Shown here: positions 3,847 through 61,676 of the stretch, one piece after another
Numbering within the stretch: the stretch's first letter is position 1
Layout: each line of letters starts with the position of its first letter
Assembly: GCF_963921235.1 (NCBI RefSeq)
Contig: NC_086108.1
Coordinates: forward strand, 21,886,001 to 21,950,000
DNA length: 64,000 bases
Direction of reading: 5' to 3'
Origin: Mobula hypostoma
Lineage: Eukaryota
Notes under the pieces: generated by a model
Databases searched by the model: none
Told to the model about the DNA's origin: nothing
Seen by the model: the letters and a program-made list of their open reading frames with translations, nothing else
Program-made: the position numbers and the translations under genes

Positions 3847-6092
3847 ATTTATTTTTCTTATCGACTCAAGGATTTTAGAAACGATTTATCCCTCTGTTTC
3901 AGTTCCTTGGAATGATTTTGGTAAATATATTCTGCAGGGTCCCCAAAACCTTTACACCTTTACAAAAATAAGGCACCTAGAACTATGATCAGTCCTCCAG
4001 TACTCCAGCTGAGGCCAAGCCTGTGCATTATGAATGTTCATCATGACTTTTTGTATTTTATGCTTCTATTTATAAATTAAAGCTCAGGATACCATATGCT
4101 TTATTAACTTCTTTGTTACCCTCTGTAACAGAAATATGATAGCAGAGGGGAAGAAACTGTTCCTAAAATGTTAAATGTGGGCCTTCAGGCTGCTATTTTA
4201 TCTACCGTTGATACATTCATTTCACCTGCCTGTCTCTGTCTCTGTCTCCTTGAAATATATTGCCCTTGTTCTCACAGGTTACTGGGCTTCCAAGTTTTGT
4301 ATCATCTGCACATTTGGAGATGGTGCTTTTTATAGCCAAGTCCAAATCATTCATACTGACACCTGGAGTTTCCCCACTGGACACTTCCCCCCCAGTTAGT
4401 ACTGCCCTCTGTGTCTGTTACTCAGTCAATTTCTGTCAATGCTGTCATCTTACACAACATGACTTTCAGTCTAATGGAAAGAATATTATGTGCCCCCTTC
4501 TCAGTGTCTTCTGGAAGTGCATGTAAACCATATTGGCCACATCAACCTTTTTCACCACTTCATCAAAAACTTTGACCAACTAGTTGAGTATATTATCTCT
4601 TGAACAAACCAATGCTAGTTTTCTCTAATCTATCAACACTTTTTCAAGTGACCACAGATTCTGTTCCTGATTATTGATTCTGAAGCTTGCCCCATTACAA
4701 TAAAACTGATGAGTCTGTAATTAACTGGAGTTACCCTTGCATCCTCTTTCTTCAAACAGTTGTAACATCCTGACCCTGAGGTACTTCTTGAATGAGTAGA
4801 TGTTTGGTAGTTTAAGCCAGAGCTGTGCTTCCCTCAGCAATTTGGCATGCAGACCATGTAGCCAGATGATTTATTGATGTGAAGCGTAACTAGTCCTTAT
4901 AGTTCCAAATTTTTATCAATATTTTGGACATTCAGAATCTCAATTACATCTTTCTTTGCTGGTGAACACTAACATAAAGTTTCTCATGTCCTCTGCCCTG
5001 ATGAGTAAATTTATTTTTGCTCTGGTCAGCCCCACCTCCTTTTAGTTATTTTCTGTTCACATGGTTATAGTATCCTTTTATGTTTGTTACTAGTCCATTC
5101 TCATTTCATTTTTCACTTGCCCTCTGAACCTGATTAACATGTATTAAAATTCAGCATCTGTCAAATGCTTTACTTTGCACCTCCTTTTTTTTTTAAATGT
5201 GCTTTTTGCCATCCTGGAGCTCTGGCATTGATATTTTTATCTGCCTCAGGAGAACTTGCCTCAGCTATGGCTGAAACATGCACACTTTAAAACCTCCCTG
5301 TTGCTCAATTACGGTATTACCTGCCAAGCCTTTATTTCACTTAACATGGACCAGATGTGTTATTATTCATTAAATCGCACCCTTCCCCAACCGACTGCTT
5401 TAATCTTGGGGTGGTCTATATCCTACTATTTAACAATACTATTATCACCATTTCCTATATGTTCCCTCACTGACATTTGCTGACTTGGCGTGGCTCATTT
5501 CCCAGGATATCATTCTTTACTGAGATTCTCGCGGTAACATTGTTCTTAATGTTAAAACTTCTCAACACTCAAAAACTTCTATAGTTGTACCGTGGAGAGC
5601 ATTCTGACAGGCTGCATCACTGTCTGGTATGGAGGGGCTACTGCATAGGACTGCAAGAAGCTGCAGAAGGTTGTAAACCTAATCAGCTCCACCTTGGGCA
5701 CTAGCCTACAAAGTACCCAGGACATCTTTAGAGAGCGGTGTCTCAGAAAGGCAGCGTCCATCATTAAGGACCTCCAGCACCCAGGGTCCTTCTCTCACTG
5801 TTACTATCAGGTAAGAGGTATAGAAGCCTGAAGGCACATGCTCAGCGATTCAGGAATGGCTTCTACCCCTCTGCCATCTGATTCCTAAATGGACATTGAA
5901 GCTTTGGAGACTACCTCACTTTTTTTTAATATATAGTATTTCTGTTTTTGCACGTTTTTTAATCTATTCAATATATGTAATTAATTTACTTGCGCAAACA
6001 CGAGGAATTCTGCAGATGCTGGAAATTCAAGCAACACACATCAAAGTTGCTGGTGAACGCAGCAGGCCAGGCAGCATCTCTAGGAAGAGGTA

Positions 6093-6130
6093 CAGTCGAC
6101 GTTTCAGGCCGAGACCCTTCGTCAGGACTA
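6093..6130 (-). ncRNA. Minimal hammerhead ribozyme motif, inverse copy
   Basis: The reverse complement reads TAGTC-CTGACGA-agggtctcggcct-GAAA-C-GTC-GACTG. Confidence 0.68.
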
Positions 6131-6880
6131 ACTGAAGGAAGAGTTAGTAAGAGATTTGCAAGTGGGAGGGGGAGATCCAAAATGATAGAAGAAGACAGGA
6201 GGGGGAAGGATGGAGCCAAGAGCTTGACAGGTGATTGGCAAAGGGGATATGAGAGGATCATGGGACAGAAGGTCCAGGGAGAAAGACAAGGGGGGGGAGG
6301 AACCCAGAGGATGGGCAAGGGGTATAGTCAGAGGAACAGAGGGAGAAAAAGGAGAGTGAGAGAAAGAATGTGTGTATAAAAATAAATAACGGATGGGGTA
6401 CGAGGGGGAGGTGGGGCATTAGCGGAAGTTAGAGAAGTCGATGTTCATGCCATCAGGTTGGAGGCTACCCAGACGGAATATAAGGTGTTGTTCCTTCAAC
6501 CTGATACAACACCTTATATTCCGTCTGGGTAGCCTCCAACCTGATGGCATGAACATCGACTTCTCTAACTTCCGCTAATGCCCCACCTCCCCCTCGTACC
6601 CCATCCGTTATTTATTTTTATACACACATTCTTTCTCTCACTCTCCTTTTTCTCCCTCTGTCCCTCTGACTATATGACTATACCCCTTGCCCATCCTCTG
6701 GGTTCCTCCCCCACCCTTGTCTTTCTCCCCGGACCTCCTGTCCCATGATCCTCTCATATCCCCTTTGCCAATCACCTGTCAAGCTCTTGCTCCATCCTTC
6801 CCCCTCCTGTCTTCTTCTATCATTTTGGATCTTCCCCTCCCCCTCCCACTTTCAAATCTCTTACTAACTCTTCCTTCAGT

Positions 6881-6918
6881 TAGTCCTGACGAAGGGTCTC
6901 AGCCTGAAACGTCGACTG
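6881..6918 (+). ncRNA. Minimal type I hammerhead ribozyme motif (PLE-associated)
   Basis: TAGTC-CTGACGA-agggtctcagcct-GAAA-C-GTC-GACTG. Stem I is TAGTC/GACTG, the CUGANGA and GAAA boxes are intact, the cleavage triplet is GUC (6911-6913), and a palindromic ACGT replaces stem III. Confidence 0.7.
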
Positions 6919-7459
6919 TACCTCTTCCTAGAGATGCTGCCTGGCCTGCTGCGTTCACCAGCAACTTTGATGTGTGTTAATTAATTTACTTGTTTATTTA
7001 TTATTTTTTTTTCTCTGGTAGATTATGTATTGCATTGAACTGCTGCTGCTAAGTTAACAAATTTCACGTCACATGCCCGTGATAATAAACCTGATTCTGA
7101 TTCTGAAGACTGATGTGCAGAACTCTAGTACCTCATTTTATTATTTGAGATGTGTTGTAAGGAACAATAACAGTAATGGAAGTCGTCCTAGAGGGGATCA
7201 TTTTTGGAATGTATGCATTTCTAATCATATATGTGTTCAGTAACTGGTGTGAATTTCTTCAACAAAACAACAATTTCACATCATATGTCAGTAATATTAA
7301 ATCTGATTCTGACAATTTGTTAACAATAGCAATGATCTATGTCAGACGTGTCTTATTTGTTGTTTTGATCTATTGCAAAGTTTTAAAGCTTAAGTAGACA
7401 CTTCATGAAACATTTTGAGAAATTAACAACATAGTATTCAGTTCTATTGAAGTGCAATA

Positions 7460-9011
7460 CAGGTTCCCCCGCCATCCAAAGGAAGAGCATTCCTAAGAAA
7501 CGGTTCGTAAGCCGAAATGTCGTAAAGTGAAGAAGCAATTACCATTTATTTATATGGGAAAATTTTGTGAGCGTTTGCAGACCCCAAAATAACCTACTAA
7601 ATCATGCCAAATAACACATAAAACCTAAAATAACAGTAACGTATAGTAAAAGCAGGAATGATATGATAAATACACAGCCTATATAAAGTAGAAATACTTT
7701 TCCACAATCATTATTGCACTGTTCTCCGTAGCGAAAATCTCATGCAAGCTCTCTCGGCAAAAACACGGCGCAAGCGCGCTCTGCAGTAACCTTTAAGCTA
7801 TGAAGCTGCCAAATCATACCAAATAACACGTAAAAATACACAGCCTTTATAAAGTAGAAATAATGTATGTACAGTGTTGTATCACTTACCGGAATTGGCT
7901 CAGCGCTGAGCATACTGATGATGGTGTGTTAGATTGAGTTGGAGGTTGGTGTGGTGCAGTGGCCCCCACCCTCCAGGCCACCGACCAATATATTGCTGCG
8001 AAGCATGCAGGGGTGCAGCGGTAGCCGGGAGGCACACAGCACATCTTTAAGAAAAAAGCCGAAATAAGCATGCTAATAAATTAGGTGCTGGCCGGCACGT
8101 AATTGTCGGCCCAGATCAGTGCCGATTTCCGATTGCGTCGTCTCTGATCTGGGCCGACAATTACGCGTCGGGCGGCACCTAATTAATTAGCATGCTTATT
8201 TTGGCTTTTTTCTTAAAGATGTGCTGTGTGTCTCCTGGCTACTGCTGCATTCTCCGCGAATCGATACTGTATCTGTCCGCAGCCTGGGATTTGGGGTGGT
8301 GGGACACTGGGGTGTCATCTCGTCGTCTGTTTCCATTAGAGCAGGCAGCTCATCTTCTCCTATGACTGCCCGCCTCGATGTCAAACGTCGAGGTTCGTCG
8401 TCTGCTGTGGCTGATGTGGAAGGCTTGCTTGACTGCTGAGCCTTGCTCATTTTTCTATCACACAGTTTTTGTAAGCACTCAATCCATCCTGCAAATATCC
8501 CCTAAACCTATGTATCCTTTCAAAATTAAAGTCGTACTTTATCATTACTCATTCAGTTTCGATTGTTATCCTTTCCTCTTCCAATTGCATCAGCTCTTCA
8601 TCTATCAGTTCTTGGTCATGGGATGCCAAAACCTCTTCAACATCATCTTCGTCAGCTTCCACAAGCCAAGCTCACTTAGTCCTTGCTTTGTTCACCACGA
8701 TCGAAATGCTTAATTATGTCTAGTTTTATGCTAAGTGCGACACCCTTACGAGCTCTTTCAGGCTTTTCCGATACCATAGAACTCATCTTGCTAACGGCTG
8801 CTCACAGACACGTATTTAAGCAATGCCAGCGAGAATGCAGTTCCGAATCCGGGGGAGAGCGGCTGCTCGGGGCACGCGCTGCCTTTTATCGCGCTGCTTT
8901 TTTACTGTAACAGTGAAAACACCTTCTGAAAGCGAAAACAGGGAACTAATGTAGGTCTTTCGTAACAGTGAGGTTTCGTAAAGCGAACGTTCGAAAAGCG
9001 GGGGACACCTG
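7460..9011 (-). mobile_element. Internally deleted Tigger (pogo superfamily) DNA transposon, copy 1
   Basis: Termini are ta-CAGGTTCCCCC ... GGGGGACACCTG-ta with a TA TSD. The minus strand keeps transposase remnants (KGVALSIKLDIIKHFDRGE; VEEVLASHDQELIDEELMQLEEE). There is an internal palindrome at 8015-8249. Confidence 0.8.
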
Positions 9012-9286
9012 TATTTATTTCATGTTCTTCATTCTTTGCATAAGTTGAAGGTTTGTCTGGGCTTTTTAATTCCTGATATCTTGTCAGTAATACCTGAACA
9101 TTGATCAAAAGAGATTGCTGCCCTCCAATTTGAGCAATGTGGGGAAAAAAAGTGTCTTTTGTAGAGGTTAGCTTTGAATTAGAATGAGGCTGTGTTTTTT
9201 TTAAGGAAACCACCAAAACAAATTTTAGGAGATGGCTGTTTAATTAAACAGATGGGGATAAATAAATTTGTATTTGAGCTTATATT

Positions 9287-10985
9287 GCTGGCGATCAGCT
9301 GGAGCTCAAGAAAAGCAGCTATAATCTGCACAAAGCTAACGAGGCTGCGAAACAACAATACAGGGACGAAATTGAGTCAAGATTCACAACAAATAGCACA
9401 CGTGACTTGTGGCGAGGGCTGCATACCATCGCAGACTTCAAAGCCAAATGGTGCCACCAACATCGTGGCCTCTCTCCCAGATGAGCTCAATCGCTTTTAC
9501 ACTCAGCTCGATGTTGCTAACTCTGAGCCTCCGAGGAAAGCCACCGTTACAACCTGCAACCTGGTCATCTCTGAGGCTGAGGTATGCAGATGTTTTCAAC
9601 GAGGGGACAGTCACAAGGCTGAGAGACCGGACGGCATCCCAGGGCGGGTACTTAGGATATGCACAGCTCAACTGATAGGTGTGTTTGCGGACATTTTTAA
9701 TCTCTCCCTCTCCCAGTGTAGAGTGTCCTCCTGCTTCAAATTATCCACCATTGTCTCTGTACCGAAAAGACTGAGGTAACATGCCTGAATGACTGGTGTC
9801 CTGTCACACTTACCTCAATAATAAGTAAATGCTCTGAGAGGCTAGTCAAGGATTACACCTTCAGCTTGCTACCACCCAAACTGGACCCCCTACAATTCGC
9901 CTACCGACACAACCGATCGACAGACGACGCAATAGCCACTGCTCTATATACCGTCCTTACACATCTGAAGAAGGATGCTTATGTGAGAATGCTGTTTTTG
10001 GACCACAGTTCAACATTCAACACTATAGTTCCATCCAGGTTCGACAGGAAGCTCTGAGACCTCGGCCTTGACCCTGCCTTGTGCAGCTGGATCCTGTCAG
10101 ATCGCCGGCAGTGGTAAGAGTGGGCTCCCTCACCTCTACCCCTCTGACTCTCAATACAGGAGCCCCTCAGGGCTGTGTACTAAGTCCCCTCCTTTACTGC
10201 CTGTATACCCATGACTGTGTCGCCACCCACAGCTCTAATCTGCTCATTAAATTTGCCGACGACACTACATTGATTGGCCTTATCTCAAACAATACCGAGG
10301 TGGCCTGCAGGGAAGAGGTCATCTGTCTGACACAGTGGTATCAAGAAAACAACCCTTCCCTCAATGTTGCAAAAGCAAAGGAGCTGGTTGTGGATTACCG
10401 GAGGAATGGAGACGAGCTAACCCCTATTGACATCAATGGATCTGGGGTTGAGAGGATGAACAGCTTTAAGTTCCTCGGCATCCACATCACCGAGGACCTC
10501 ACATGGTCTGTACATACCAGTTGTGCGGTGAAAAGGGCACAACAGCACCCATTTCATCTCAGATAGTTGAGGAAGTTTGGTATGGGCCCCCAAATCCTAA
10601 GAACCTTCTTTAGGGGCACAATTGAGAGCATCCTGTCTGGCTGCATCACTGCTTGGTATAGGAACTGTACTTCCCTTAATCGCAGGACTCTGCAGAGAGT
10701 GGTGCTGATGGCTCAGCGCATCTGTAGTTGTGGACTTCCCATGATTCAGGACATTTACAAAGACAGGTGTGTAAAAAGCGCCCGTAGGATCATTGGGGAC
10801 CCGAGTCACCCTAACCACAATCTATTCTAGCTGCTACCATCTGGGAAACGGTGCCACAGCATAAAAGCCAGGACCAACAGGCTCCGGGACAGCCTCCTCC
10901 ATCAGATCATAAGACTGATTAACTCACGTTGATTTGAGTGTATTCTATGTTACATTTACTGTTCTATTTATTATAAATTATTATA
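9287..10985 (+). mobile_element. 5'-truncated Rex1/Babar-type LINE, reverse transcriptase pseudogene
   Basis: Frameshifted ORFs carry the RT motifs [53 protein letters not shown] and ESILSGCITAWY. Confidence 0.9.
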
Positions 10986-12941
10986 GATTTTTGGTGAATG
11001 AGATTTGTTGTATTATCTGATGGAATGTGATCATCCAATTCTTATGAAAACGCAAGCAAAACAGCAAGAAAATCAGACTCTATTTTAGTGTTGTGCATGT
11101 TGAGTGATGTCTTTGTGCGCTAAATCTCCATCACTACCTGATCAAATGCAACTAGAGCAGGGTAATTCATGTAACCTTGCAAGTAATATCCATATTGTTG
11201 CATGAATGAAGTCACTGGAGAAACGTACTGGTAGAATCAAAGCAGCTTCTTTATTTGACAAAACAAGGTACATCAGGGCATCATATGGGAGATGCTTTCA
11301 CTCAAAGGTCTGGCTGGGCCAACGTGGGGCTTGTGTGCCAAATATCAAAGGACAATTCCAAATTTACAGTGTATGGACAATGCTTTCTTTGTAACTACAT
11401 ACAACCTTCACAGCTTGTGATTCGCATCCATATCATAGACATCCAAATAAATTTTAATCAGCATTGTCTGGTTTGGAAACCATTGTTCAGAGCTGCGCTC
11501 CAAATTAAATCCACAATACATTTTAAGATGTGAAGTCTGGTAAATGTATGTGTTTAGGACACCTACATTGCTAAATGTATGTGTCTTAAACCCCAAAAAT
11601 TGCTCTAACAATCCAGTATCTGAGAATTAATATTTATTTCTTAAAAAAAGCTCTGACATGTAATCTCTTAGTGCAGTGGTAAGAGATTATTTTACCCATT
11701 GAGTCTTTAATGACTTTGTCTCTGATTGATCCCATTCCTCTGTTCTATTCTTGTAGTTCTAGAAATGATTTACAAATAGTATCCAATTCCCCTTTGAAAG
11801 CTGCCTTTGACATTTTCCCTAGCACTGGCTTATAGACGGTGGATTCCAGTTCATAACTACGTTCGACACAAGTTTTTTTTTGCAGTATTCACCACATCTT
11901 TGCTCATCAGTTCCCTTATTTTAAAACCATTTGCCATTAAGCAATATCTTTGTGTTTACTCATAGCAGTTATGATATGCATATATTTTGTGTCTTGGCCC
12001 AACTTCCTTCTTTGCTTCAAAGAAATCAAACTCATTTTCTGCAGCTGAAATCAAGTCATTCCAAGAACTATTGTAGGGAAACTTTCCTCCACCACGTCTG
12101 TGTACTACTTGTATTTTCATGACTGTCTTTAGAATCAATACTTGAATTGTTGCTAAACCAATGTATTATAGCATTCCAGCTTTTGTGTTCTACCTTTTAA
12201 ATTGATTGTAAATTACTCTTACAAATGCTGCCACTTTCAAATGTTTCTCAATATATGCATTCAAATCTTCTTTTCTTATAAGCCATTTGTATCTCTGCCA
12301 TTTGGTTTATGTTGACTCTTGTTCTTTTGTCAAAAATATCACACCTCACTCCATTAAAATTCATTGTTCCTATCTATCAATGACTTGGTGTAGTTTGGTA
12401 GTATTCTCTTTGAAGTTTTGTCAAAATGCTGTGCTAACTGCACAAACATTTGCCTTTCCTGCTGCTGTGATATAGACTTGGTTGTGGTTCAGTCCTCCAT
12501 TAGCATTCCTTCAGCAATGAAACAATTAAAATTATTTCTTTGCTACTTGTCAGTGTGGAGTGAGCCATGTGCAATGGCAGCCTGTGAGGTCTGGGTTTGG
12601 GTGGGCTGGAGTACTTAGCATGGCCTCTTAGATTGAATTCCTCTGTTTGGCTGCACAGCTCTCAACCCAGAGATTTCTGCAACCAGTGTAAGGGTGGTTG
12701 CTTGCCAATGTACCCTAATACTATTCACATACTTATAGAAAACCTCTGGATCTTCTTTAATATGAATTGCAATAAAAAAAATTTCCCTTCCTATTTCCAT
12801 TTCCATGGTCTCTTTCAGTCAGGTGCTTACTTGAACTATTCCCCTGATGTGCCTCATAAATCTTGTTTTATTTCATCTTATTCCTTATTTCCTTTATTGT
12901 TAAAATTCAAGTTTTGATTCCCTATACTTCCCCTTCTATAA

Positions 12942-13038
12942 GTGTATATATATGTATGTGTGTGTTTGTGTGTGTACGTGTATATATATACATACACACA
13001 CACACATACACACACACATAGGTGTATACCTATATATA
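12942..13038. repeat. Compound (TA)/(TG)/(CA) microsatellite
   Basis: Seen directly. It abuts the Tigger terminus at 13039. Confidence 0.85.
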
Positions 13039-14603
13039 TAGGTGTCCCCCACTTTTCGAACGTTCGCTTTACAAAACCTCACTGTTACGAAAGACCTACA
13101 TTAGTTCCGTTTTCGCTAACAGAAGGTGTTCTCACTGTTACGAAGAAAAGCAGCAGCGAGAAAAAGGCAGCGCGCGATAAAAGGTAGCGCGCGCCCCAAG
13201 CAGCCGCTCTTCCCCGGATTCGGAACTGCATTCTAGCCGGCATTGCTTTAACACATGCCTGTGAGCAGCCGTTTACAAAATGGGTTCTAAGGTATCGGAA
13301 AAGCCTAAAAGAGCTGGTAAGGGTGTTACACTCAGCGTAAAACTAGACATAATTAAGCATTTCGATCGTGGTGAATGCAGTAAGGACAACGTGAGTCTGG
13401 CTTGTGGAAGTTGACGAAGGTGATGTTGAAGAGGTTTTGGCATCCCATGACCAAGAACTGATAGATGAAGAGCTGATGCAATTGGAAGAGGAAAGGATAA
13501 CAATCGAAACCAAATGAGTAATCATAAAGTACGACTTTAATTTTGAAAGGGTACTTGGGTTTAGAGCGTATTTGCAAGATGGTTTGAGTCCTTACAAAGA
13601 ACTGTATGATCTAAAAATACGCGAGGCTCAGCAGTCAAGCAAGCCTTCCACATCAGCCACAGCAGACGATGAACCTCGACCTTCGACATCGAGGCAGGCA
13701 GAGATAGGAGAAGGTGACCTCCCTGCCCTGATCGATGATGAGATGACACCCCAGTGTCCCACCTCCCCAACCCCTGGGCCGCGGACAGATACCGATTCAC
13801 GGAGAATGCAGCAGTAGCCGGGAGGCACGCAACGTATCTTTAAGAAAAAAGCCGAAATAAACATGGTAATTAATTAGGTGCCAACCGGCACATAATTGTT
13901 GGCCCAGATCAGAGACGATTACGGATTGCATTGCCTCTGATCTGGGCCGTCATTTATATGCCGGGCGGCACCTAATTAATTAGCATGTTTGTTTTGGCTT
14001 TTTTCTTAAAGATGTGCTGTATGCCTCCCGGCTACCGCTGTACCCCTGCATGCTTTGCGGATCGGTATCGGTTTGCTGCCTAGAGGGTGGGGGCCACTGC
14101 ACCACCCAAACTCCGACGACTCAGCCTAACACATCATCATCAGTGTGCTCAGCGCTGTCTTCCTGATTCCCGTAAGTGATACTACACTGTACATACATTA
14201 TTTCTACTTTATATAGGCTATGTATTTTTACGTGTTATTTGGTATGATTTGGCAGCTTCATAGCTTAAAGGTTATTGCAGAGCGCTTGTGCCATGTTTTT
14301 GCCGAGAGCGCTTGCGTGAGATTTTCGCTATGGAGAACAGTGCCGGCAATGATTGCGGAAAAGTATTTCTACTTTATATAGGCTGTGTATTTATCATATC
14401 ATTTCTGGCTTTACTAAATGTTACTGTTATTTTAGGTTTTGTGTGTTATTTGACGTGATTTGGTAGGTTATTTTTGGGTCTGCGAACACTCACAAAATTT
14501 TCCCATATAAATAAATGGTAATTGCTTCTTCGCTTTACGACATTTCGGCTTACGAACCGTTTCATAGGAACACTCTACCTTCGGATGGGGGGGGGCAAAC
14601 CTG
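13039..14603 (+). mobile_element. Internally deleted Tigger DNA transposon, copy 2 (inverted relative to copy 1)
   Basis: Termini are TAGGTGTCCCCC ... GCAAACCTG-ta. ATG near 13280 gives MGSKVSEKPKRAGKGVTLSVKLDIIKHFDRGE, a psq/CENP-B-type HTH N-terminus, joined to an acidic C-terminal remnant. It is a reverse-complement homologue of 7460-9011. Confidence 0.82.
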
Positions 14604-23647: not shown

Positions 23648-26600
23648 TAGAAACATAGAAACACAGAAAATAGGTGCAGGAGTAGGCCATTCGGCCCTTC
23701 GAGCCTGCACCGCCATTTATTATGATCATGGCTGATCATCCAACTCAGAACCCCGCCCCAGCCTTCCCTCCATACCCCCTGATCCCCATAGCCACAAGGG
23801 CCATATCTAACTCCCTCTTAAACATAGCCAATGAACTGGCCTCAACTGTTTCCTGTGGCAGAGAATTCCACAGATTCACCACTCTCTGTGTGAAGAAGTT
23901 TTTCCTAATCTCGGTCCTAAAAGGCTTCCCCTTTATTCTCAAACTGTGGCCCCTTGTTCTGGACTTCCCCAACATCGGGAACAATCTTCCTGCATCTAGC
24001 CTGTCCAATCCCTTTAGGATTTTATACGTTTCAATCAGATCCCCCCTCAATCTTCTAAATTCCAACGAGTACAAGCCCAGTTCATCCTGTCTTTCTTCAT
24101 ATGAAAGTCCTGCCATCCCAGGAATCAATCTGGTGAACCTTCTTTGTACTCCCTCTAAGGCAAGGAGGTCTTTCCTCAGATTAGGGGACAAAAACTGCAC
24201 ACAATACTCCAGGTGTGGTCTCACCAAGGCCTTGTACAACTGCAGTAGTACCTCCCTGCTCCTGTACTTGAATCCCCTCGCTATAAATGCCAGCATACCA
24301 TTCGCCTTTTTCACCGCCTGCTGTACCTGCATGCCCACTTTCAATGACTGGTGTATAATGACACCCAGGTCTCGTTGCACCTCCCCTTTTCCTAATCGGC
24401 CACCATTCAGATAATAATCTGTTTTCCTATTTTTGCCACCAAAGTGGATAACTTCACATTTATCCACATTAAATTGCATCTGCCATGAATTTGCCCACTC
24501 ACCCAACCTATCCAAGTCACCCTGCATCCTCTTAGCATCCTCCTCACTGCTAACACTGCCACCCAGCTTCGTGTCATCCGCAAACTTGGAGATGCTGCAT
24601 TTAATTCCCTCATCCAAGTCATTAATATATATTGTAAACAACTGGGGTCCCAGCACTGAGCCTTGCGGTACCCCACTAGTCACCGCCTGCCATTCTGAAA
24701 AGGTCCCGTTTATTCCCACTCTTTGCTTCCTGTCTGCTAACCAATTCTCCATCCACATCAATACCTTACCCCCAATACCGTGTGCTTTAAGTTTGCACAC
24801 TAATCTCCTGTGTGGGACCTTGTCAAAAGCCTTTTGAAAATCCAAATATACCACATCCACTGGTTCTCCCCTATCCACTCTACTAGTTACATCCTCAAAA
24901 AATTCTATGAGATTCGTCAGACATGATTTTCCTTTCACAAATCCATGCTGACTTTGTCTGATGATTTCACCGCTTTCCAAATGTGCTGTTATCACATCTT
25001 TGATAACTGACTCCAGCAGTTTCCCCACCACCGACGTTAGGCTAACCGGTCTATAATTCCCCGGTTTCTCTCTCCCTCCTTTTTTAAAAAGTGGGGTTAC
25101 ATTAGCCACCCTCCAATCCTCAGGAACTAGTCCAGAATCTAACGAGTTTTGAAAAATTATCACTAATGCATCCACTATTTCTTGGGCTACTTCCTTAAGC
25201 ACTCTAGGATGCAGACCATCTGGCCCTGGGGATTTATCTGCCTTCAATCCCTTCAATTTACCTAAACCACTTCCCTACTAACATGTATTTCGCTCAGTTC
25301 CTCCATCTCACTGGACCCTCTGTCCCCTACTATTTCTGGAAGATTATTTATGTCCTCCTTAGTGAAGACAGAACCAAAGTAATTATTCAATTGGTCTGCC
25401 ATGTCCTTGCTCCCCATAATCAATTCACCTGTTTCTGTCTGTAGGGGACCTACATTTGTCTTTACTAGTCTTTTCCTTTTTACATATCTATAAAAGCTTT
25501 TACAGTCAGTTTTTATGTTCCCTGCCAGTTTTCTCTCATAATTTTTTTCCCCCTTCCTAATTAAGCCCTTTGTCCTCCTCTGCTGAAATCTGAATTTCTC
25601 CCAGTCCTCAGGTGAGCCACTTTCTCTGGCTAATTTGTATGCTTCTTCTTTGGAATTGATACTATCCCTAATTTCTCTTGTCAGCCACGGGTGCACTACC
25701 TTCCTTGATTTATTCTTTTGCCAAACTGGGATGAACAATTGTTGTAGTTCATCCATGCAACCTTTAAATGCTTGCCATTGCATATCCACCGTCAATCCTT
25801 TAAGTGTCATTTGCTAGTCTATCTTAGCTAATTCATGTCTCATACCTTCAAAGTTACCCCTCTTTAAGTTCAGAACCTTTGTTTCTGAATTAACTTTGTC
25901 ACTCTCCATCTTACTGAAGAATTCCACCATATTATGGTCACTCTTACCCAAGGGGCCTCTCACGACAAGATTGCTAATTAACCCTTCCTCATTGCTCAGA
26001 ACCCAGTCCAGAATAGCCTGCTCTCTAGTTGGTTCCTCGACATGTTGGTTCAAAAAACCATCCCGCATACATTCCAAGAAATCCTCTTCCTCAGCACCTT
26101 TACAAATTTGGTTCACCCAATCTACATGTAGATTGAAGTCACCCATTATAACTGCTGTTCCTTTATTGCACACATTTCTAATTTCCTGTTTAATACCATC
26201 TCCGACCTCACTACTACTGTTAGGTGGCCTGTACACAACTCCCACCAGCGTCTTCTGCCCCTTAGTGTTACGCAGCTCTACCCATATCGATTCCACATCT
26301 TCCCGGCTTATGTCCTTCCTTTCTATTGCGTTAATCCCTTCTTTAACCAGCAACGCCACCCCACCTCCCCTTCCTTCATGTCTATCCCTCCAAAATATTG
26401 AATATCCCTGAACATTGAGCTCCCATCCTTGGTCACCCTGGAGCTATGTCTCTGTGATCCCAACTATATCATAATCATTAATAACAATCTGCACTTTCAA
26501 TTCATCCACCTTATTACGAATGCTCCTTGCATTGACACACAAAGCCTTCAGGCGCTCTTTTACAACTCTCTTAGCCCTTATACAATTATGTTGAAAAGTG

Positions 26601-27650
26601 GCCCTTTTTAATGCTTGCCCTGGATTTGTCGGCCTGCCACTTTTACTTTTCTCCTTAGTACTTTTTGCTTCTACCGTCACTTTACACCCCTCTGTCTCTC
26701 TGCACTGGTTCCCATCCCCCTGTTGTGAACTAACCTCCTCACGCCTAGCCTCTTTAATTTGATTCCCTCCCCCAAACCATTCTAGTTTAAAGTCACCTCA
26801 GTAGCCCTCGCTAATCTCCCTGCCAGGATATTGGTCCCCCTAGGATTCAAGTGTAACCCGTCCTTTTTGTACAGGTCACGCCTGCGCCAAAAGAGGTCCC
26901 AATGATCCAAAAACTTGAATCCCTGCCCCCTGCTCCAATCCTTCAGCCACGCATTTATCCTCCACCTCATCGCATTCCTACTCTCACTGTCGCGTGGCAC
27001 AGGCAGTAATCCCGAGATTACTACCTTTGCGGTCCTTTTTCTCAACTCCCTTCCCAGCTCCCTATATTCTCCTTTCAGGACCTCATCCCTTTTCCTACCT
27101 ATGTCATTGGTACCTATATGTACCACGACCTCTGGCTCCTCACCCTCCCACTTCAGGATATCTTGGACACGAACAGAAATATCCCGGACCCTGGCACCAG
27201 GGAGGCAAACTACCATCCGGGTCTCTAGACTGCGTCCACAGAATCGCCTATCTGACCCCCTTACTATCGAGTCCGCTATCACAACTGCCCTCCTCTTCCT
27301 TGCCCTACCCTTCTGAGCTACAGGGCCAGACTCTGTGCCGGAGGCACGGCCACTGTCGCTTCCCCCGGGTAAGCTGTCCCCCCCAACAGTACTCAAACAG
27401 GAGTACCTATTGTTAAGGGGCACAGCCACCGGGGTACTCCCTATTACCTGACTCTTCCCCTTCCCCCTTCTAACCGTGACCCACTTGTCTGCCTCCCGTG
27501 GCCCCGGCGTGACCACCTGCCTGCAACTCCTCTCTACCAACTCCTCACGCTCCCTGACCAGACGAAGGTCATTGAGCTGCAGCTCCAGTTCCGTAACGCG
27601 GTCCCTTAGGAGCTGCATCTCGATGCACTTGGCGCAGATGTAGACGTCCA
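23648..27650 (-). mobile_element. Near full-length, young CR1 LINE (5' end truncated within ORF1)
   Basis: ORF1 and ORF2 are colinear, followed by a 3' UTR and an octamer tail that reads (TAGAAACA)n on +. Confidence 0.95.
23745..26560 (-). pseudogene. CR1 ORF2 (AP endonuclease + RT), disrupted by two stops and one frameshift
   Basis: APE motifs NARSI, GITET, YRPP, GDFN and SDH; RT motifs YRPVSLTS, LDFQKAFD, GVPQGSVLGP and FADD. In-frame TAG stops at 26444-26446 and 25814-25816, and a frame change near 25260. Confidence 0.92.
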
Positions 27651-27651
27651 C
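26782..27651 (-). CDS. CR1 ORF1: zinc-finger remnant, coiled coil, SGNH/GDSL esterase domain
   Basis: CAKC...LLRDRVTELELQL, and the esterase blocks (A)DSIVRG, LPGA, HIGTNDIG and DGLHLN. Confidence 0.85.
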   Translation of the reverse strand: MDVYICAKCIEMQLLRDRVTELELQLNDLRLVREREELVERSCRQVVTPGPREADKWVTVRRGKGKSQVIGSTPVAVPLNNRYSCLSTVGGDSLPGGSDSGRASGTESGPVAQKGRARKRRAVVIADSIVRGSDRRFCGRSLETRMVVCLPGARVRDISVRVQDILKWEGEEPEVVVHIGTNDIGRKRDEVLKGEYRELGRELRKRTAKVVISGLLPVPRDSESRNAMRWRINAWLKDWSRGQGFKFLDHWDLFWRRRDLYKKDGLHLNPRGTNILAGRLARATEVTLN

Positions 27652-28950
27652 TGTTGTGGTATTGCCTGGATTTGTTGTGTACTGTTGTGTTGTGATGGTG
27701 TATGATCCAACAAACGGACTGTGTGGTTGTCTTGGACATTCTTATTGTGTTCGCAAGGCCCTGTTGGACGTTGGTAATGCTGCAAGTCTGGTTCCCTGGT
27801 GAGACCGATGGCGGGGGAGCTGCGTTGCCTCGGTTGTGTTGAGGGCTATGTTGAGGCCACAGTATGATTTGTTGCAGGTGCCCAGGGGATGAGAGCCGAG
27901 ACTGTGTAGGAGAGAGTATGGGCTTCTGTTGGGCATCCTGGAGCCTGTCCTGGGTCGGGGGCTGGTGCCTTCAGTTGGTGCTGCTCTTTAGTGTTCACTC
28001 ACTGCTGCTCTCCTGCTTGGAACTGGACAAGGACAATCTACAATAATGCCTCTTAGGAACTTGGGCTATAATTATTTTTTCTTTGTGACTGCATGTTTTT
28101 CTGAAATCGGAAACCATATGTGTTATTTGTGCTATGTGCAATGTTCTGTGTGCTATTGGTAATGGGTTTGCACCTTGGCCCTGGAGCAACACTGTTCATT
28201 TGACTATAATCATGTGTGGTTGAATGATAATTGAACTTGAAGTTGAAGCTTGAATGGGTGACAAAGTTTTATCCACGGGATTTAAGAGTATAATGAAGGA
28301 AGCTAACCTGGCATAGTCAAGACTTGAGTATAAAGCATAGGCTGAGATTTTGGCAGCTTGTTAGTGGAGATGGATGATGTTATGGAGATAGTAATTTCCA
28401 TAATTCATGGCTGGAATAGATTTTCTGAACCTCATTGCAGTGTCATGTGACGTCAAAGTTTATGCAGTCTTGTTCAGTTGCAGATATGCCAGAAGCAGAA
28501 AAGGATGTAGTTGGGGAAGAAGGTTGTTGATGGCAGGAGAAGGTCATGGCTTTTGCTCTTTTATTTTAAATTAAGAGGGAATATCTATTTATTCAGTGCT
28601 GCATTTCAAAAAGGTGTTTGACAACTTAATGACAGCAGGAGATCTCGAAAGGTGGAGTTATCTGTCAGCAGCGTGATGGTGTGTTTTGTTGAACACTGAT
28701 GTGCCCATATGGAATAGACAAAGATGAGGTTTAAATGCATGAACAATATCAGATGGTGCGAGAAGCATAAAGTCATTCATGATTTTTATTTTATTTTGAG
28801 ATACAGCACAGAACAGGCCCTTCCAGCTCAATGAACCTTGCCACCCAGCAATTGGCCTATTTAACCCTAGCATAATCACAGGACAATTGACAATGACCAA
28901 TTAACCTACCAAGGGTACATCTTTTGGATTGTGGTAGGAAACTGGAGCAC

Positions 28951-29779
28951 TGGAATCAGCAGAAGAACATCTAATAAGTTAGGGGTGTTTACAGTGGAGA
29001 TGCTGGCAGTGTTGGTTGCGTTGCAATGGCTGCAGAAAGCCAGACAAGCCAAAGCATTGATATGTTCAGATTCATTCTCAGTTCTAGCAAATTTAAGGTC
29101 TTTTCACACAAACAGTCGGCAAGATGTACTTTATGAAGTCCTTCAGTTAGTAATCAGGGAGGTCAGGTAAAATTTCTATGGGTTCCAGCACATGTGGGGG
29201 TGAAGGGGAATGAGAGGGTGGATGAGTTGGCAAAGAGGGCGTTAAAGAAAGAAAATGTGGAAATGCACATTAGTATCAGTAAAGCAGAGGTTAAGTGTGT
29301 AATCTGGGAAAAAGTCAACCGAATGTGGCAAGAAAGATGGGACAGGGAGGGGAAAGGGAGGCATTTATATCAAATGCAAAAGAGTGTTGCATTTACTAGG
29401 GTAGGTAGTGGAAATAGAAGAGAGGAAATTGTGTGGACTAGGTTAAGGCTGGGGCATTGTGCATTAAACAAAACATTGAAAATGATAGGGAAAAAACAAA
29501 AAAGGATTGTGTGAGGAATGTCAGGAAGAGGAGTCAGTAGAACATGTAGTTCTGAGTTGCAGGAAGTATGGGATACAGAGAGAGATGATGAGAAATAAAT
29601 TAAGGGAGTTGGGGATGCAGGAATTCACATTAAAAGGGTTGCTGGGCATGGGTGAGAGAGCACAAGTCCGGGTATTTTTAGTGTTTTGAAGGGATACAGG
29701 GGTTTTTTATAGAATATGACGAATAAACAGGAATAGGATGCTAGGATGGTCAAAGATGGGAGGGTGAAGTGTAGGTTTG

Positions 29780-29841
<62 letters not shown>

Positions 29842-29962
29842 CGCGATTGGGTGAAGGGATTTAGAATGTATGTCTAGTGCACATTCTGGAGCAGAGGGTG
29901 GCAGTAATGCACCATTAAGCTGGATGCCAACCGCCGTAAAACAAGATACAGACAGACAGATA
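28951..29962 (+). mobile_element. 5'-truncated I/Nimb-clade LINE with RNase H and C-terminal CCHC knuckle, 13 bp TSD
   Basis: RNase H motifs VFTVEMLAV, ICSDS and WVPAHVGVKGNERVDELAK; then TRLRLGH and CEEC-EESVEHVVLSC. It has a (GACA)n tail and the TSD 'gaaactggagcac' at 28938-28950 and 29963-29975. Confidence 0.85.
29780..29845. repeat. (TA)n(TG)n(CG)n compound microsatellite inside the LINE 3' UTR
   Basis: Seen directly. Confidence 0.9.
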
Positions 29963-32759: not shown

Positions 32760-35712
32760 CAAACAACACACACAAAATGCTGGAGGAATTCAACAGGCCA
32801 GGCAGCATCTATGGAAAGGAGTAAACAGTCGATGTTCTGGACTAAGACCCTTCATCAGGACTGGAAAAAAAGGTGTCACAGTAAGAAGTACAAGGTGTTA
32901 GATGAAACCAGGAGAGGGGGAGGGGTGAAGTAAAGAACTGGGAAGTTGAATGGTGAAAGAGATGAGGGGGTGGAGCAGGGGGAAGCTGCTAGGAGAGGAC
33001 AGAAGGCCATGGAAGAAAGGGAAGGGGGAGGAGCACCAGAGGGAGGTAGTGAGCAGGCAAGGAGATAGCATGATAGAGGGAAATGGCAATGGGGAATGGA
33101 AAGGGGGGTGGCAATTACCAGAAGTTCAAGAAATTGATATTCATGCCATGAGGTTGGAGGCTACCCAGATGAATTATAATGCACCTCCAACCCAAGTGTG
33201 GCCTCATTGCAGCAGTAGAGGAGGCTGTGGACTGACATATAGGAATAGGAAGTAGAATTGAAATGGGTGGCCACCGGGCAATCCCGCTGTTTTTTGGTGG
33301 ATGGCAATGTGGTCTCCCAATCTACGTTAGGTCTTGCCCATATACAGAAAGCCACACCGGGAGCACCGAGTACAGTGGATGACCCCAGCAGACTCACAGG
33401 TGAAGTGTCACCTCACCTGGAAGGACTGTTCGGAGCCCTGAATGGTAGTGAGGGAGGAGGTGTGGCACTTGTTCCTCTTGCAAGAGTGAGTACCAGGAGG
33501 GATGAATGAGCAAGGGAATCGCATAGGGACCGATCTCTGCGGAAAGTCAAAAGTGGAGGGAGAGAAAGATGTTTGGTGGTGGGATCCCGTTAGAGATGGC
33601 GGAAGTTACATAGAATTTCGTGCTGGATGTGGAGGCTAATGGGGTGGTGGGCAAGGGCAAGAAGATCCAGTTCAAACCTTGCTCCTTCCGAATGTAGTGC
33701 CCTCCACTCCCTCCACACCAATCCTAACATCACCATCAATCCTGCGATAAGGGGGAAACTGTAGTAGTCTGGCGGATTGACCTCTACCTTGCTGAGGCCA
33801 GGCGACAACTCTCAGACACCTCCTCTTACTTACCTCTCGAACAGGACCCCACTAAAGAGCACTAGGCCATTTCATCTGCACCATCACTGACTGTATTAAC
33901 TCTGGGGAATCTCCCATCCACTCCCACGAACCTTATGGTTCCCTTACTCCAAACCTCCCATTTCTATCTCCTTCCAAGATCCACAAATCCATTGTTTCTA
34001 CTTGTTTTTACCTCACCAAACGTTTATTAACTCTGTTTTACCCCTTTTGATTCAGTCCCTTCCTACCTGTATCTCTGACACTTCACACGCTCTGGATCTT
34101 TTCAATGACTTTAAGTTACCTGGCCCTGATCGTTTTATTTTTACCATGGATGTCCAGTCCCTCCTACACCTCCATCCTGCATCAGGAGGGCCTGAAAGCT
34201 CTCTGCTTTCTAGACAACAGATCCAACCTGTTCCCCTAAACCACCACTCTCCTCTGTCTGGCGGAACTGGTCCTCACTCTCAATAATTTCTCTTTCGACT
34301 TCTCCCACTTCCTTCAAATGAAAGGTGTAGCCATGGGAAGACGCATGGGTCCCAGCTATGCCTGCCTTTTGGCCGGCTACGTGAAACAATCAAATTTATC
34401 TGGTCCATTTCCAACACCTCCCTCCCCTTTCTCAATCTCTGTATCTCTACCTCTGGAGACAGTTTATCCACTGATATCTTTTATAAACCACTGATTCTCA
34501 TAGCTACCTGGACTACACCTCTTCCCACCCTGTTACTTGTCAAAATGTTATCCCCTTCTCTCAATTCCTTTATCTCTGCTGCATCTGCTCTCAGGATGAG
34601 GCTTTTCATTCTAGAACTAATGAGATGTCCTCCTCCTTCAAAGAAAGGGGGTTTTCTTCATCCATCATCAACACCGCCCTCATCTGCATCTCTTCCATTT
34701 CACGCACGGCTACTCTCACCCCATCCACCTACCACGTCACCAGGGATAGGGTTATTCTTGTCTTCACCTACCATCCTACTAGTCTCTACATCCAGCGCAT
34801 AATTCTCCCATGGAATCCCACATCTTGCCCTCCCCCACACACTTTTCACAGGAATTGCTCCCTATGCGACTCCTTTGTCCATTCGTCCCTCCACCACTGA
34901 TCTCCCTCCTGGTACTTACCCATGAAAGTGGAACAAGTGCCACACGTGCTCTGACACCTCTTCCCTCACTACCATTCAGGGCCCCAAACAGTCTTTCCAG
35001 GTAAGGTGATACTTCAGTAGATGTTGGCCATCTACTGTATCTGGTGCTCCCATTGTGGCTTCCTGTATATTGGTGGACCTGATGCAGATTGGGAGACCGC
35101 TTTGCTGAGTACCTATGCTCCATCCGCCAGAAAGAGCAGGATCTTTCGGTGGCCACCCACTTAAATTCTACTTCTCATTCTCAGTACAATAAGTCCATTG
35201 CCTCCTCTACTGCTGCGATGAGGCCACACTTAGGTTGGAGGAGCACCTTATATTCTGTCTGGGTAGCTTCTAACCTGACGGCATGAATATGGATTTCTTG
35301 AACTTCCAGTAATAGCCTCCCCCTCCCCATTCCCCATTCCTGGTTCCCTCTCTTGCCTTATCTCCTTACCTACCTGTTACCTCCCTGTGATGCTCCTCCC
35401 CTTCCCTTTCTTCTATGGTCTTCTACCCTCTCCTGGCATACTCTCCCTTCTCCAGGCCTTTATCTCTTTCACCACTTAACTTCCCAGCTCTTTACTTCAT
35501 CCCCCTCTCCTAGTTTCACCTATCACTTACTACCTTGTACTCCTTCCTCCACTATTCCCACCCTCTTACTCTGACTTCTCATCTTTTTTTCCAGTCCTGA
35601 TGAAGGGTCTCAGCCTGAAACGCTGACAGTTTACTCTTTTCCATAGATGCAGCCTGGCCTGCTGAGTTCCTCCAGCATTTGGTGTGTGCAGCATCTGCAG
35701 ATTTTCTCATGT
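32760..35712 (+). mobile_element. Decayed Penelope-like retroelement: RT + GIY-YIG body (33666-35712, +) preceded by an inverted copy of its own 3' part (32760-33665, -)
   Basis: PLE RT remnants ADKG..VVVW, FIFTMDVQSL and QMKGVAMG.RMGPSYA. GIY-YIG remnants IYCIWC..CG.LYIG, LGDRFAEYL..IR, VATHLN and LIFCLG..PDGMN. Hammerhead-like cores at ~35593-35630 (+) and ~32827-32863 (-). Confidence 0.85.
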
Positions 35713-46349: not shown

Positions 46350-46938
46350 TTTGAAGAGATTTGGTATGTCAACAAATACACTCAGAAACTTCTATAGATA
46401 TACCATGGAGAGCATTCTGACAGGCTGCATCACTGTCTGATATTTGGGGGGGGGGGTTACTGCACAGGACTGTAAGAAGCTGCAGAGGATTGTAAATTTA
46501 GTCAGCTCCATCTTGGGAACTAGCCTACAAAGTACCCAGGACATCTTCAGGGAGCGGTGTCTCAGAAAGGCAGCATCCATTATTAAGAACCTCCAGCACC
46601 CAGGGCATGCCCTTTTCTCACTGTTACCATCAGGTAGGGGGTACAGAAGCCTGAAGGCACACACTCATCGGTTCAGGAACAGCTTCTTCCCCTCTGCCAT
46701 CTGATTCCTAATGAACATTGAACCTTTGGACACTACCTCACTTTTTTAAAATATATAGTATTTCTGTTTTTGCATGATTTTTAATCTATTCAATATACAT
46801 ATACTGTATAAAGTATACTAAATAAGATTTATTTATTATTATTTTTCTTCTATATTATGTATTGCATTGAACTGCTGCTACTAAGTTAACAAATTTCCCA
46901 TCACATGCCGGTGATAATAAACCTGATTCTGATTCTGA
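46350..46938 (+). mobile_element. Rex1/Babar-type LINE 3' end, uninterrupted
   Basis: LKRFGMS...ESILTGCITV...RFRNSFFPSAI, with a (TGATTC)n tail. Confidence 0.82.
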
Positions 46939-51920: not shown

Positions 51921-54340
51921 GCGCAAGATAGATATGTCCCACAGAGGAACTAGTTCTCAGTTGGAAGGGGTAGGCAACCGTGGCTGACAATAGAAGTCAA
52001 GGACTGCATAAAAGCCAAGGAAAGGGTATATAAGGTAGCAAAAGTGAGTGGGAAGTTGAATGATTGGGAAGCTTTTAAAATCCATCAAAAGGCTTCTGAA
52101 AAAGCTATAAGAAGGGAAAAGATGAAAGGCAGGCTAGTCAATAATATAAAGCAGGATACCAGAAGTTTTTTCTGTTATATAAAGGGTAAAAGGGAGGTGA
52201 GAGTTGATATTGAACCACTGGTCAGGTTGTAATGGGGACAAAGAAATAGCAGATGAACTTAATGAGTACTTTGCACCTGTCTTCACTGTGGAAGACACTA
52301 GCAGTGTGCCAGAGGAATGTGAGTGTCGGGGAGCAGGAGTGAGTGCCTTTGCTATTACAAAGGGGAAAAGTGCCAGGCAAACCGAAAGGTCTTAAGATGG
52401 ATAAGTCAGCTGGGCCAGATGGACTACATCCTAGAGTTCTGACAGAGGTTGCTGAAGAGATAACAGAGGCATTAACCATAATCTTTCAAGAATCACTTGA
52501 TCCTGGCCTAGTGTCAGAGGCTGGTAGATTGCAAATGTCACTCCACTCTAAGAAGAGAGGAAGGCAAAAGAAACGAAGTTATAGGCCAAGCAACACACAC
52601 ATAAATGTTGGAGGAACTCAGCAGGCCAAACAGCATTTATGGGAAAAAGTACAGTCGATGTTTCAGCCCGAAATGTCAATTGCACAGTCCTGCCGAAGGT
52701 TTCGACCTGAAACATTGACTGTACAGTCCTGCCGAAGGGTTTCAGTCCGAAAATGTTGACTGTACTTTTTCCCATTGATGCTGCCTGGCCTGCTGAGTTA
52801 TTCCAGCATTTTGTGTGTGTCGCTCAGATTTCCAGCATCTCCAGATTTTCTCTTGAGTGTGAGAGGGGGGAGGTAGGTGGGTAGGAGAGGGGGAATGAAA
52901 AGAAATGATATGAGAAGTTAGGAGATGATAAGTGGAAGAGGCAAAGGGCTGTTGTGGAATTATAGGCTAGTTAGTCTAACCTCAGTGGTTGGGAAAGTAT
53001 TGAAATCTATTATTAAGGATGAGGTTTCGAGGTACTTGGAGACTAACGATGAAGTAAGTCAAAGTCAGCATGGTTTCTGTAAAGGGAAATCTTGCCTGAC
53101 AAATCTGTTAGAATTATTCAAGGAAGTGACAAGCAGGTGGACAAAGGAGAGGCAGTGGATGTCATTTACTTGGATTTTCAGAAGATGTCTGATAAGATGC
53201 CACACTTGAGGCTGCTTAACAAGATAAAATCCTGTGGTGTTACAGGAAAGATACTGACATGGACAGAGGAGTGGCTGACAGGCAGGAGAGAGTGAGTGGG
53301 AATAAAAGGGACCTTTCTTGGTTGACTTTTGGTGTTCCTCAGGGTTTGTATTAGGATTGCTGCTTTTCACATTGTTTGCCAATGATTTAGATAATGGAAT
53401 TGATGGCTTTGTGGCAATGTTTGTGAATGACAAAGATAGGTGGAGGGGTAGGTAGTGCTGAGGAAGCAATGCGATTGCAGCAGGACTTAGACAAATTGGA
53501 AGAATAGGCTTAAAAAGTGGCAGATGGAATACAGTGTTGGGAAATGTATGAGAATGCTTTTTGGTAAAAGGAACAATAATGCAGACTGTTAGCTCAATCG
53601 GGAGAAGGTTCAAACATCAGAGGAGGAAAGGGACTTAGGAGTCCTCATGCAAGACTCCCAGAAGGTTAATTTACAGGTTGAGTCTGAGGTAAGAAAGACA
53701 AATGCAAAGTTGGCATTTATTTCCAGTGGAATAGAATATAACATCAAAGAGGTATTGTTGAGCCATTATAAGACGCTAGTCAGGCCGCACTGAAGAGTAT
53801 TATCAACAGTTTTCGGCCCCATATCAGAAGGGATGTGTTGTCATTGGAGAGAGTCCAGAGGAGGTACATGAGGATGATTCCAGGAATGAAGGGGTTAACA
53901 TATGAGGAGCGTTTGGCAGCTTTGGGCCTGTATTCACTGGAATTTAGAAGAATGGGTGGGGATCTCATTGAAACCTACCAAATGTTGAAAGGGCTAGGTA
54001 GGGTGAATGTGGAGAGGATGTTTCATATGGTGGGGATATTCAGAAATAGAGGCCACATCCTCAAGATTGAGGGGTAACCCTTTGGAACAGAGATAAAGAG
54101 GAATCTCTTTAGCCAGAGAGTAGTAAATTTGTGGAATACTCTGCCACAGACTGCAGTGGAGGCCAGGTCCGGCGGAAGTTGATCATTTCCTGATCGGCCA
54201 GGGCATCAAAGGATGTGGCGAGAAGGTAGGTGTATGGTGTTGAGTGGGATACAGGATCAGCTATGATCGAATGGTAGAGTAGACTGAACGGGCTGAATGG
54301 TCCTAATTCTGCTCTTGTGTGTTACGGTTTTGTGATCTTA
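51921..54340 (+). mobile_element. Decayed CR1 LINE ORF2/3' end
   Basis: DKSAGPDGLHPRVL, YRLVSLTSVVGK, QHGFCKGKSCLTNL and LYSLEFRRMGGDLIETY, followed by a CR1 3' UTR. Confidence 0.88.
52587..52959. mobile_element. PLE-derived fold-back insertion with tandem hammerhead-like units, 8 bp TSD
   Basis: TSD 'ttataggc' at 52579-52586 and 52960-52967. The inverted arms are ~52594-52665 and ~52750-52820. Confidence 0.7.
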
Positions 54341-61551: not shown

Positions 61552-61676
61552 ATGTGAAAGGTCCTCCAACACACAGACTGTCTTGTGGCCAGTCCCCATA
61601 TGCAGAAACAGCCTGGGATCAGAAATATTGTATGCTAACTGACAGCCAGATGATCCTTCTGAACAGGGAAGAAGAG
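61552..61676 (+). CDS. RASAL2: Internal coding exon (probably exon 2 of the long isoform) of RAS protein activator-like 2 (RasGAP, SynGAP/DAB2IP family)
   Basis: Polypyrimidine tract and acceptor 'tgttttgtgtctctttatttgcag' ends at 61551. Donor 'gag|gtaaaa' starts at 61677. The 125 bp exon (phase 1 to phase 0) translates (D)VKGPPTHRLSCGQSPYAETAWDQKYCMLTDSQMILLNREEE. This matches my recollection of RASAL2 DVKGPPTHRLSCGQSPYTETTTWERKYCILTDSQLVLLNKEKE; the SYNGAP1 paralogue is more divergent here. Confidence 0.88.

Follow-up and report, generated by a model that had tools for sequence, protein, structure and literature searches.

A minimal hammerhead from a Neptune-type Penelope-like element in a mirror-image insertion of RASAL2 intron 1 in Mobula hypostoma, likely inert through its mirror arm

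The window (the whole analysed stretch of 64,000 nucleotides from Mobula hypostoma) contains a 38-base motif at 6881-6918 of the plus strand. It belongs to no host element but represents the minimal hammerhead carried in the pLTR of a Neptune-type Penelope-like element (PLE). We consider it highly probable that this hammerhead sits in a dead mirror-image insertion and is inert, since base pairing with the mirror arm is predicted to set in once the motif is transcribed. As judged from its letters, the motif is a further member of the minimal hammerhead (min-HHR) class of PLEs, with its closing pair off the consensus and its cleavage putative. The features of the locus are as follows.

5978-5992, no strand: target-site duplication (TSD), left copy, 15 bp, AT-rich (identical 15-mers)
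5993-6505, minus strand: left arm, an inverted 5'-truncated copy with an extra tail (inner end approximate)
6093-6130, minus strand: inverted twin of the hammerhead with one mismatch, antisense on the RASAL2 transcript (from arm comparison)
6506-6977, plus strand: right arm, a 5'-truncated Penelope-like copy with ORF end and pLTR (short 3' end)
6506-6578, plus strand: final 23 codons of the element ORF with the stop codon, the C-terminus after the GIY-YIG endonuclease (from translation)
6862-6883, plus strand: branch-point-like heptamer (6862-6868), pyrimidine tract, and AGs at 6878-6879 and 6882-6883 abutting stem I (from sequence)
6881-6918, plus strand: minimal type I hammerhead (from letters, fold and descriptor scan)
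6978-6992, no strand: target-site duplication, right copy, 15 bp (identical 15-mers)
61552-61676, plus strand: second coding exon of RASAL2 (nGAP), 100% identical to ray nGAP/RASAL2 proteins

The 38 bases and their coordinates agree with an earlier sequence-only reading of the window, whose stem I, CUGACGA, GAAA and palindrome were borne out letter by letter. Stem I is formed by 6881-6885 with 6914-6918 (four Watson-Crick pairs and one U-G), the core C3-A9 (CUGANGA) occupies 6886-6892 and the GAAA (G12-A15.1) occupies 6906-6909, giving the type I order CUGANGA ... GAAA ... UH. The palindrome of the loopless helix III lies at 6909-6912, C17 is 6913, and the predicted cut falls at 6913/6914. One unpaired extra A at 6893, between A9 and 10.1, had been omitted in the sequence-only reading. 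This unpaired nucleotide and the palindromic 15.2-16.2 without a helix III loop are both traits of min-HHRs, and an A stands at the equivalent position in 73 of 73 young copies, a sample enriched for exact matches. Helix II joins 6894-6897 with 6902-6905 through four pairs, G-U (G10.1-U11.1), G-C, G-C and U-G, and this register has -2.3 kcal/mol versus -1.1 for a shifted register of three pairs. The consensus closing pair G10.1-C11.1 is absent and G-U stands in its place, which is not exclusionary for a min-HHR. The only change of the window copy's own within the motif is at 6901, in the helix II loop.

The hammerhead belongs to the right arm of a 985-bp head-to-head insertion at 5993-6977, the left arm of which was overlooked in the sequence-only reading; the region 6023-6987, which contains the motif, forms one long inverted repeat. 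Each arm begins with the ORF's last codons, followed by the pLTR. The right arm ends 64 nt beyond the cut site, and the left arm alone carries an extra 3' tail of about 40 nt (5993-6033). The reverse complement of 6485-6504 extends the ORF frame as in locus L151, and the C-terminus encoded at 6506-6578 is identical in kind to that of longer copies bearing GIY-YIG and reverse transcriptase (RT). An alignment of the two arms (457 columns) shows 5 substitutions and 4 gaps. They are about 1% apart and 5-8% from the long element copies, so the insertion looks recent. It is nested in an older repeat, which has a paralog at 46715-46900 without the insertion. Contigs from four sequencing runs over 6900-7100 gave repeat families only, none across the junction.

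The same architecture recurs elsewhere in the genome. Among 40 fetched 10-kb loci and the RASAL2 region, 17 of 18 head-to-head pairs (<=3 kb) consist of one tailed and one short arm, and seven of the 18 have a common flank of 13-15 nt. We also took 30 copies picked by a downstream anchor (L158-L187; four inverted pairs are counted twice), and their 3' ends lie 56-75 nt past the cut site in 21 and 100-107 nt past it in nine. Nearly all of these copies (27/30) run through the hammerhead cut site, and the position of the 5' end differs among them, as truncated retrotransposition would produce. No 5'-end pile-up was seen at the cut site (1/30 within 4 nt, a sample too small against mild enrichment). 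Thirteen of the 30 have their start inside the hammerhead or shortly ahead of it, from 60 nt upstream to 6 nt downstream of the cut; this points to an RNA end at that place or to an obstacle for reverse transcription.

Inverted 5'-truncated units with a one-sided tail of 30-40 bp are described for endonuclease-positive PLEs (PMC8557442, PMC3846280), with the same head-to-head arms and TSD, although the TSD is 15 bp here and 8-10 bp in the rotifer examples. The two classes of 3' ends are also those of PAc, a Poseidon element of the green anole, in which they correspond to two RT start sites; PAc likewise has an AT-rich target and copies made from uncleaved RNA (PMC11167929). We infer that the element endonuclease cut the AT-rich site with a 15-nt stagger, and that reverse transcription from the two known internal starts (the short end and the tail end) would have made the two arms on an RNA template uncut at the hammerhead. 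Such two-ended priming is our own proposal; the layout of the insertion agrees with what was shown in vitro for the anole element, namely two RT start sites and a template left uncleaved.

The identity of the element comes from longer genomic copies, in which the same ORF extends upstream through a GIY-YIG domain and then a Cx4CxxC linker to RT. With Pfam, RT was above the cut-off in one of three proteins from long open frames and GIY-YIG was below the cut-off. A near-complete element of the same subfamily (L147) has the order pLTR-ORF-pLTR with an open frame of 899 codons, and two same-strand hammerheads, one per pLTR, 3.4 kb apart. A single ORF with RT and C-terminal GIY-YIG between pLTRs is seen in L147, L148 and L150, and the window copy keeps its last 23 codons. 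The hammerhead lies in the pLTR of a Penelope-like element, and the earlier assignment to Penelope-type minimal type I hammerheads with a palindromic helix III is supported. Homologs of the element protein are shark proteins (57-72% identity) and coral proteins (52-53%). A CX2-5CxxC linker between RT and endonuclease marks Neptune and is common to Nematis (PMC8557442). The linker, the taxa of the homologs and the likeness to a published Neptune hammerhead, rather than a tree, point to the Neptune (or Nematis) clade. The ray element differs in the linker from the Poseidon element PAc, and also in that the first ATG of the long frame in L147 is downstream of the tail and not in helix II (PMC11167929).

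The min-HHRs of metazoan PLE pLTRs described by Cervera and De la Pena 2014 (PMC4209133) are alike in type I topology, core, the extra nucleotide 9/10.1, the loopless palindromic 15.2-16.2, the short helix I and the pLTR location, and they also occur as dispersed single copies and as opposite-strand pairs 100-700 bp apart. In Fig. S3 of that paper, the Neptune example from Acropora digitifera shares with the ray motif the N7=C core, a helix II of 4 bp and the cleavage triplet. Two differences are the length of helix II, 4 bp in the ray versus 7-8 bp in S. mansoni, and the G-U at 10.1-11.1 in place of the consensus G-C (PMC4209133). One supplement file of the same paper gave no shark or ray term, and a literature search on ray or shark PLE hammerheads found no relevant paper.

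The element is highly amplified in the ray genome. The exact 38-mer has 1,938 genome matches (996 + 942); 39,877 matches were counted for a subfamily 33-mer (two positions free) and 59,464 for a 33-mer downstream of the hammerhead, each with 0 for its reversed control. Among the subfamily 33-mer matches, C11.1 occurs in 7,081 and U11.1 in 32,796. The sequence-only reading had called stem II imperfect; this imperfection is no private decay of the window copy, as 32,796 of the 39,877 subfamily copies have the G-U wobble. Post-insertion CpG decay was tried as the origin of U11.1 and rejected: such decay should affect the two strands equally, yet the opposite-strand product was counted by eye in only 14 among the first 100 C11.1 matches listed, which extrapolates to roughly 1,000 copies versus 32,796 with U11.1. 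The hammerhead 3' of the ORF has U11.1 in eight of nine long-ORF loci of the subfamily (12 were fetched, and three from another subfamily were left out). Because the opposite-strand product is rare and U11.1 prevails in the long-ORF loci, U11.1 is inherited from the master element, and the copy counts indicate that the G10.1-U11.1 wobble is the subfamily master state.

The wobble is no novelty, as G-U at 10.1-11.1 occurs in at least eight of the 56 rows of Fig. S3 in PMC4209133, counted by eye. A G-C pair alone supports a miniribozyme (PMC544870). A literature search for a measured rate effect of the 10.1-11.1 wobble found nothing usable. The most amplified subfamily spread with G-U replacing the consensus G10.1-C11.1, and these natural U11.1 and C11.1 variants let one ask whether hammerhead strength matters for Penelope mobility.

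For the host gene, the exon at 61552-61676 has its best named protein match in Mobula birostris. A tblastn search of 200 kb fetched upstream placed the first RASAL2 coding exon on the plus strand, about 77 kb ahead of the window; a weak match for an alternative first exon lies about 7.6 kb ahead of it. Since RASAL2 exons lie on both sides on the plus strand, the hammerhead is on the sense strand of the first intron, which is about 138.5 kb long; the intron location and the co-orientation with the host exon given in the sequence-only reading are upheld by this exon placement. The 264 kb around RASAL2 contain 37 BLAST matches to the hammerhead region, 18 on the plus and 19 on the minus strand, and a strict descriptor scan of the 138.5-kb intron found five motifs, two sense and three antisense. 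Pfam on 18 ORFs of the window identified neither the RASAL2 exon nor the old PLE fragments.

Folding predicts that the two arms close on each other. The region 5990-6995 forms a hairpin of -949.5 kcal/mol with 459 pairs across its centre, in which 37 of the 38 motif bases (all but 6901) are paired to the twin at 6093-6130 and the probability of stem I is 0. A transcript ending at 6918 still has 37 of the 38 bases paired to the twin. The duplex of motif and twin has -74.0 kcal/mol versus -11.5 for the active dimer geometry. The twin is 761 nt upstream of the motif and is transcribed first on the RASAL2 pre-mRNA, so the antisense arm would emerge first and capture the sense arm in a predicted duplex of about 460 bp; the hammerhead would then be unable to fold, and a partner copy for helix III would not be nearby. 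The sole other intact sense motif in intron 1, 68 kb upstream, is masked likewise according to the descriptor scan and folding. The folding is nearest-neighbour only; the duplex could be opened by tertiary contacts, proteins, helicases or A-to-I editing, none of which enters the model. Two further points speak against inertness: no letter of the core deviates, and in principle the transcriptome offers identical partners by the tens of thousands.

Any working role of the motif would lie in the tandem RNA of the full element, as a protein-assisted dimer. Head-to-head insertions with a hammerhead in both arms have the antisense arm first on either strand, and such insertions are therefore predicted to silence their own ribozyme, which may help explain why the host tolerates them in introns. 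The RASAL2 locus itself has little significance, being one masked remnant among tens of thousands.

The same arms raise the question whether the insertion acts on the host RNA in another way, as a 460-bp dsRNA hairpin (editing or small RNA) or through its branch point and acceptor. The near identity of the arms (5 substitutions and 4 gaps in 457 columns) and the presence of a branch-point-like heptamer, a pyrimidine tract and an AG upstream of stem I on the sense strand favour such an action. But an adjacent inverted arm was found in 14 of the 30 anchor-picked copies, which is genome background, and the splice signal is itself within the hairpin, so we regard an effect of this kind as unlikely. 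The signals at 6862-6883 probably represent the 3' splice site of an intron within the pLTR of the element itself. In the D. virilis Penelope the intron end maps at helix I (PMC4209133), and splicing at the ray acceptor would probably alter helix I in the same manner.

The sequence-only reading proposed that this copy could cleave the pre-mRNA after 6913 if it dimerises, and the corresponding explanation is that dimerisation in trans through the palindrome, perhaps aided by the element protein, cuts the RASAL2 pre-mRNA. Core, stem I and palindrome are intact on the sense strand of intron 1, and very many identical potential partners exist genome-wide. Single min-HHRs show no cleavage and dimers show low cleavage in vitro (PMC4209133), dimer cleavage of small PLE hammerheads was reported by Lunse et al. 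(as cited in PMC6765202), and cleavage by the anole PLE hammerhead required the protein of the element, with no RNA-seq reads ending at the site (PMC11167929). Against cleavage of this copy, the upstream twin is predicted to sequester the motif completely and no tandem partner is nearby. Even with the twin omitted, a rod that pairs the cleavage triplet with core bases is more stable (-11.0) than the open fold (-7.0), and in local folds without the twin the probability of stem I is at most 0.02. The active dimer has -11.5 versus -22.0 for two closed monomers, and a natural G-C copy has -16.7 versus -25.8, so by the model the dimer penalty applies equally to the G-C copy and the window copy is not singled out. 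The intron also has no orientation deficit, with two sense and three antisense motifs, numbers too few for a selection test. Cutting in trans is thus quite improbable, and the claim of the sequence-only reading finds no support in these folds.

In a wider form of this idea, the tens of thousands of near-identical min-HHRs in transcribed introns would pair in trans through the palindrome, aided by the element protein, and cut host pre-mRNAs genome-wide, the mirror-arm hairpins would be an off-switch released by editing or helicases, and RASAL2 intron 1 would be one regulated target. We give this form slightly less credence still.

The inert mirror-image remnant also has to be distinguished from other known hammerhead settings. 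The domesticated intronic hammerheads of amniotes (RECK, CTCL, DTNB; PMC6155905) are alike in being type I in a host intron, but they are canonical, with tertiary contacts, and conserved across amniotes, whereas the ray copy is the remnant of a multi-copy transposon, apparently recent, which lacks helix III and has an antisense twin. The window motif is probably no conserved domesticated intronic hammerhead, and it is no retrozyme. A non-LTR retrozyme would be a tandem non-coding hammerhead repeat spreading through circular RNA; such elements have been described from a chondrichthyan and trace back to PLE pLTRs (bioRxiv 10.64898/2026.07.22.740005), and same-strand pairs <=3 kb exist at other loci. 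However, the units at 5993-6977 are inverted and not tandem, ORF C-terminus, tail and TSD are present, and the 5' ends vary as noted above. A retrozyme at this locus was rejected, as at least two consecutive tandem hammerhead units are required and the layout is inverted, and we hold this origin to be very improbable.

Comparison across families indicates that the fold itself is under constraint. A pattern forcing a different second helix II pair gave 261 genome matches versus 29 for the control, and among these are several unrelated families whose stem I and helix II have different sequences. The pattern left stem I free, and over all 30 loci fetched stem I is paired in 109 of 150 cells; shuffles had a mean of 75.9 and 0 of 2000 reached 109, a contrast which related copies inflate. 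In a 23-row alignment, four of five stem I pairs change on both sides and the covariation is 0.466 versus 0.188 shuffled; the alignment was hand-picked, with 19 rows from the 30 loci, and two of five summary measures were not above the shuffles. Helix II sequence differs between families and was scored at the closing pair only. The sequence-only reading would have given way if covariation were lacking across genomic copies, and stem I does covary across families. The structural constraint on the hammerhead acts on master elements and not on the window copy.

A chance match to a short consensus would fit the Rfam/Infernal search of the whole window that the sequence-only reading had suggested, in which none of 27 matches at E <= 5 was a hammerhead family, but this explanation is refuted by the stem I pairing, by the use of different stem I pairs in the families, and by the same strict descriptor finding 0 motifs in each of 10 dinucleotide-block shuffles of the intron, and its probability is negligible.

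At least four or five distinct min-HHR families are present in this ray genome. One of them (L065, L067, L072, L076, L088) is similar to the Xena/Poseidon min-HHRs of fugu, cichlid and snake in Fig. S3 of PMC4209133. A minor family (L073, L075, L078, L079, L082, L085, L086 and G000:C9:28526099-28526132) closely resembles, in a comparison by eye, the two min-HHRs of the liver fluke Clonorchis sinensis in the same figure, and G000:C9:28526099-28526132 equals C. sinensis (2) from C3 to position 17, with similar flanks. For this fluke-like family the homolog search was empty at E <= 1e-10 and the literature search was also empty; L085 has a GIY-YIG remnant. The resemblance could be horizontal PLE transfer between flatworms and rays, or deep conservation.

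Other repeats were observed in the window. TA/CA microsatellites at 12936-13035 and 29711-29888 gave spurious microRNA and snoRNA matches below gathering scores. A fairly intact, probably CR1/L2-like LINE lies at 23745-27741 on the minus strand; its RT frame of 508 aa matches Pfam RVT_1 (E 1.7e-34), and endonuclease-like and ORF1-like frames are also present. A large interrupted inverted repeat spans 7466-14594, with arms at about 7466-9018 and 13032-14594 that are 84-93% complementary; it has internal palindromes at 8014-8249 and 13809-14040 and encloses a LINE-like RT fragment at 9183-10830. Short tandem units with degenerate hammerheads are found at 52587-52820, beside an inverted arm. An older head-to-head Penelope insertion at 32766-35688 is about 75% identical to the young family and retains RT and endonuclease remnants between its arms.
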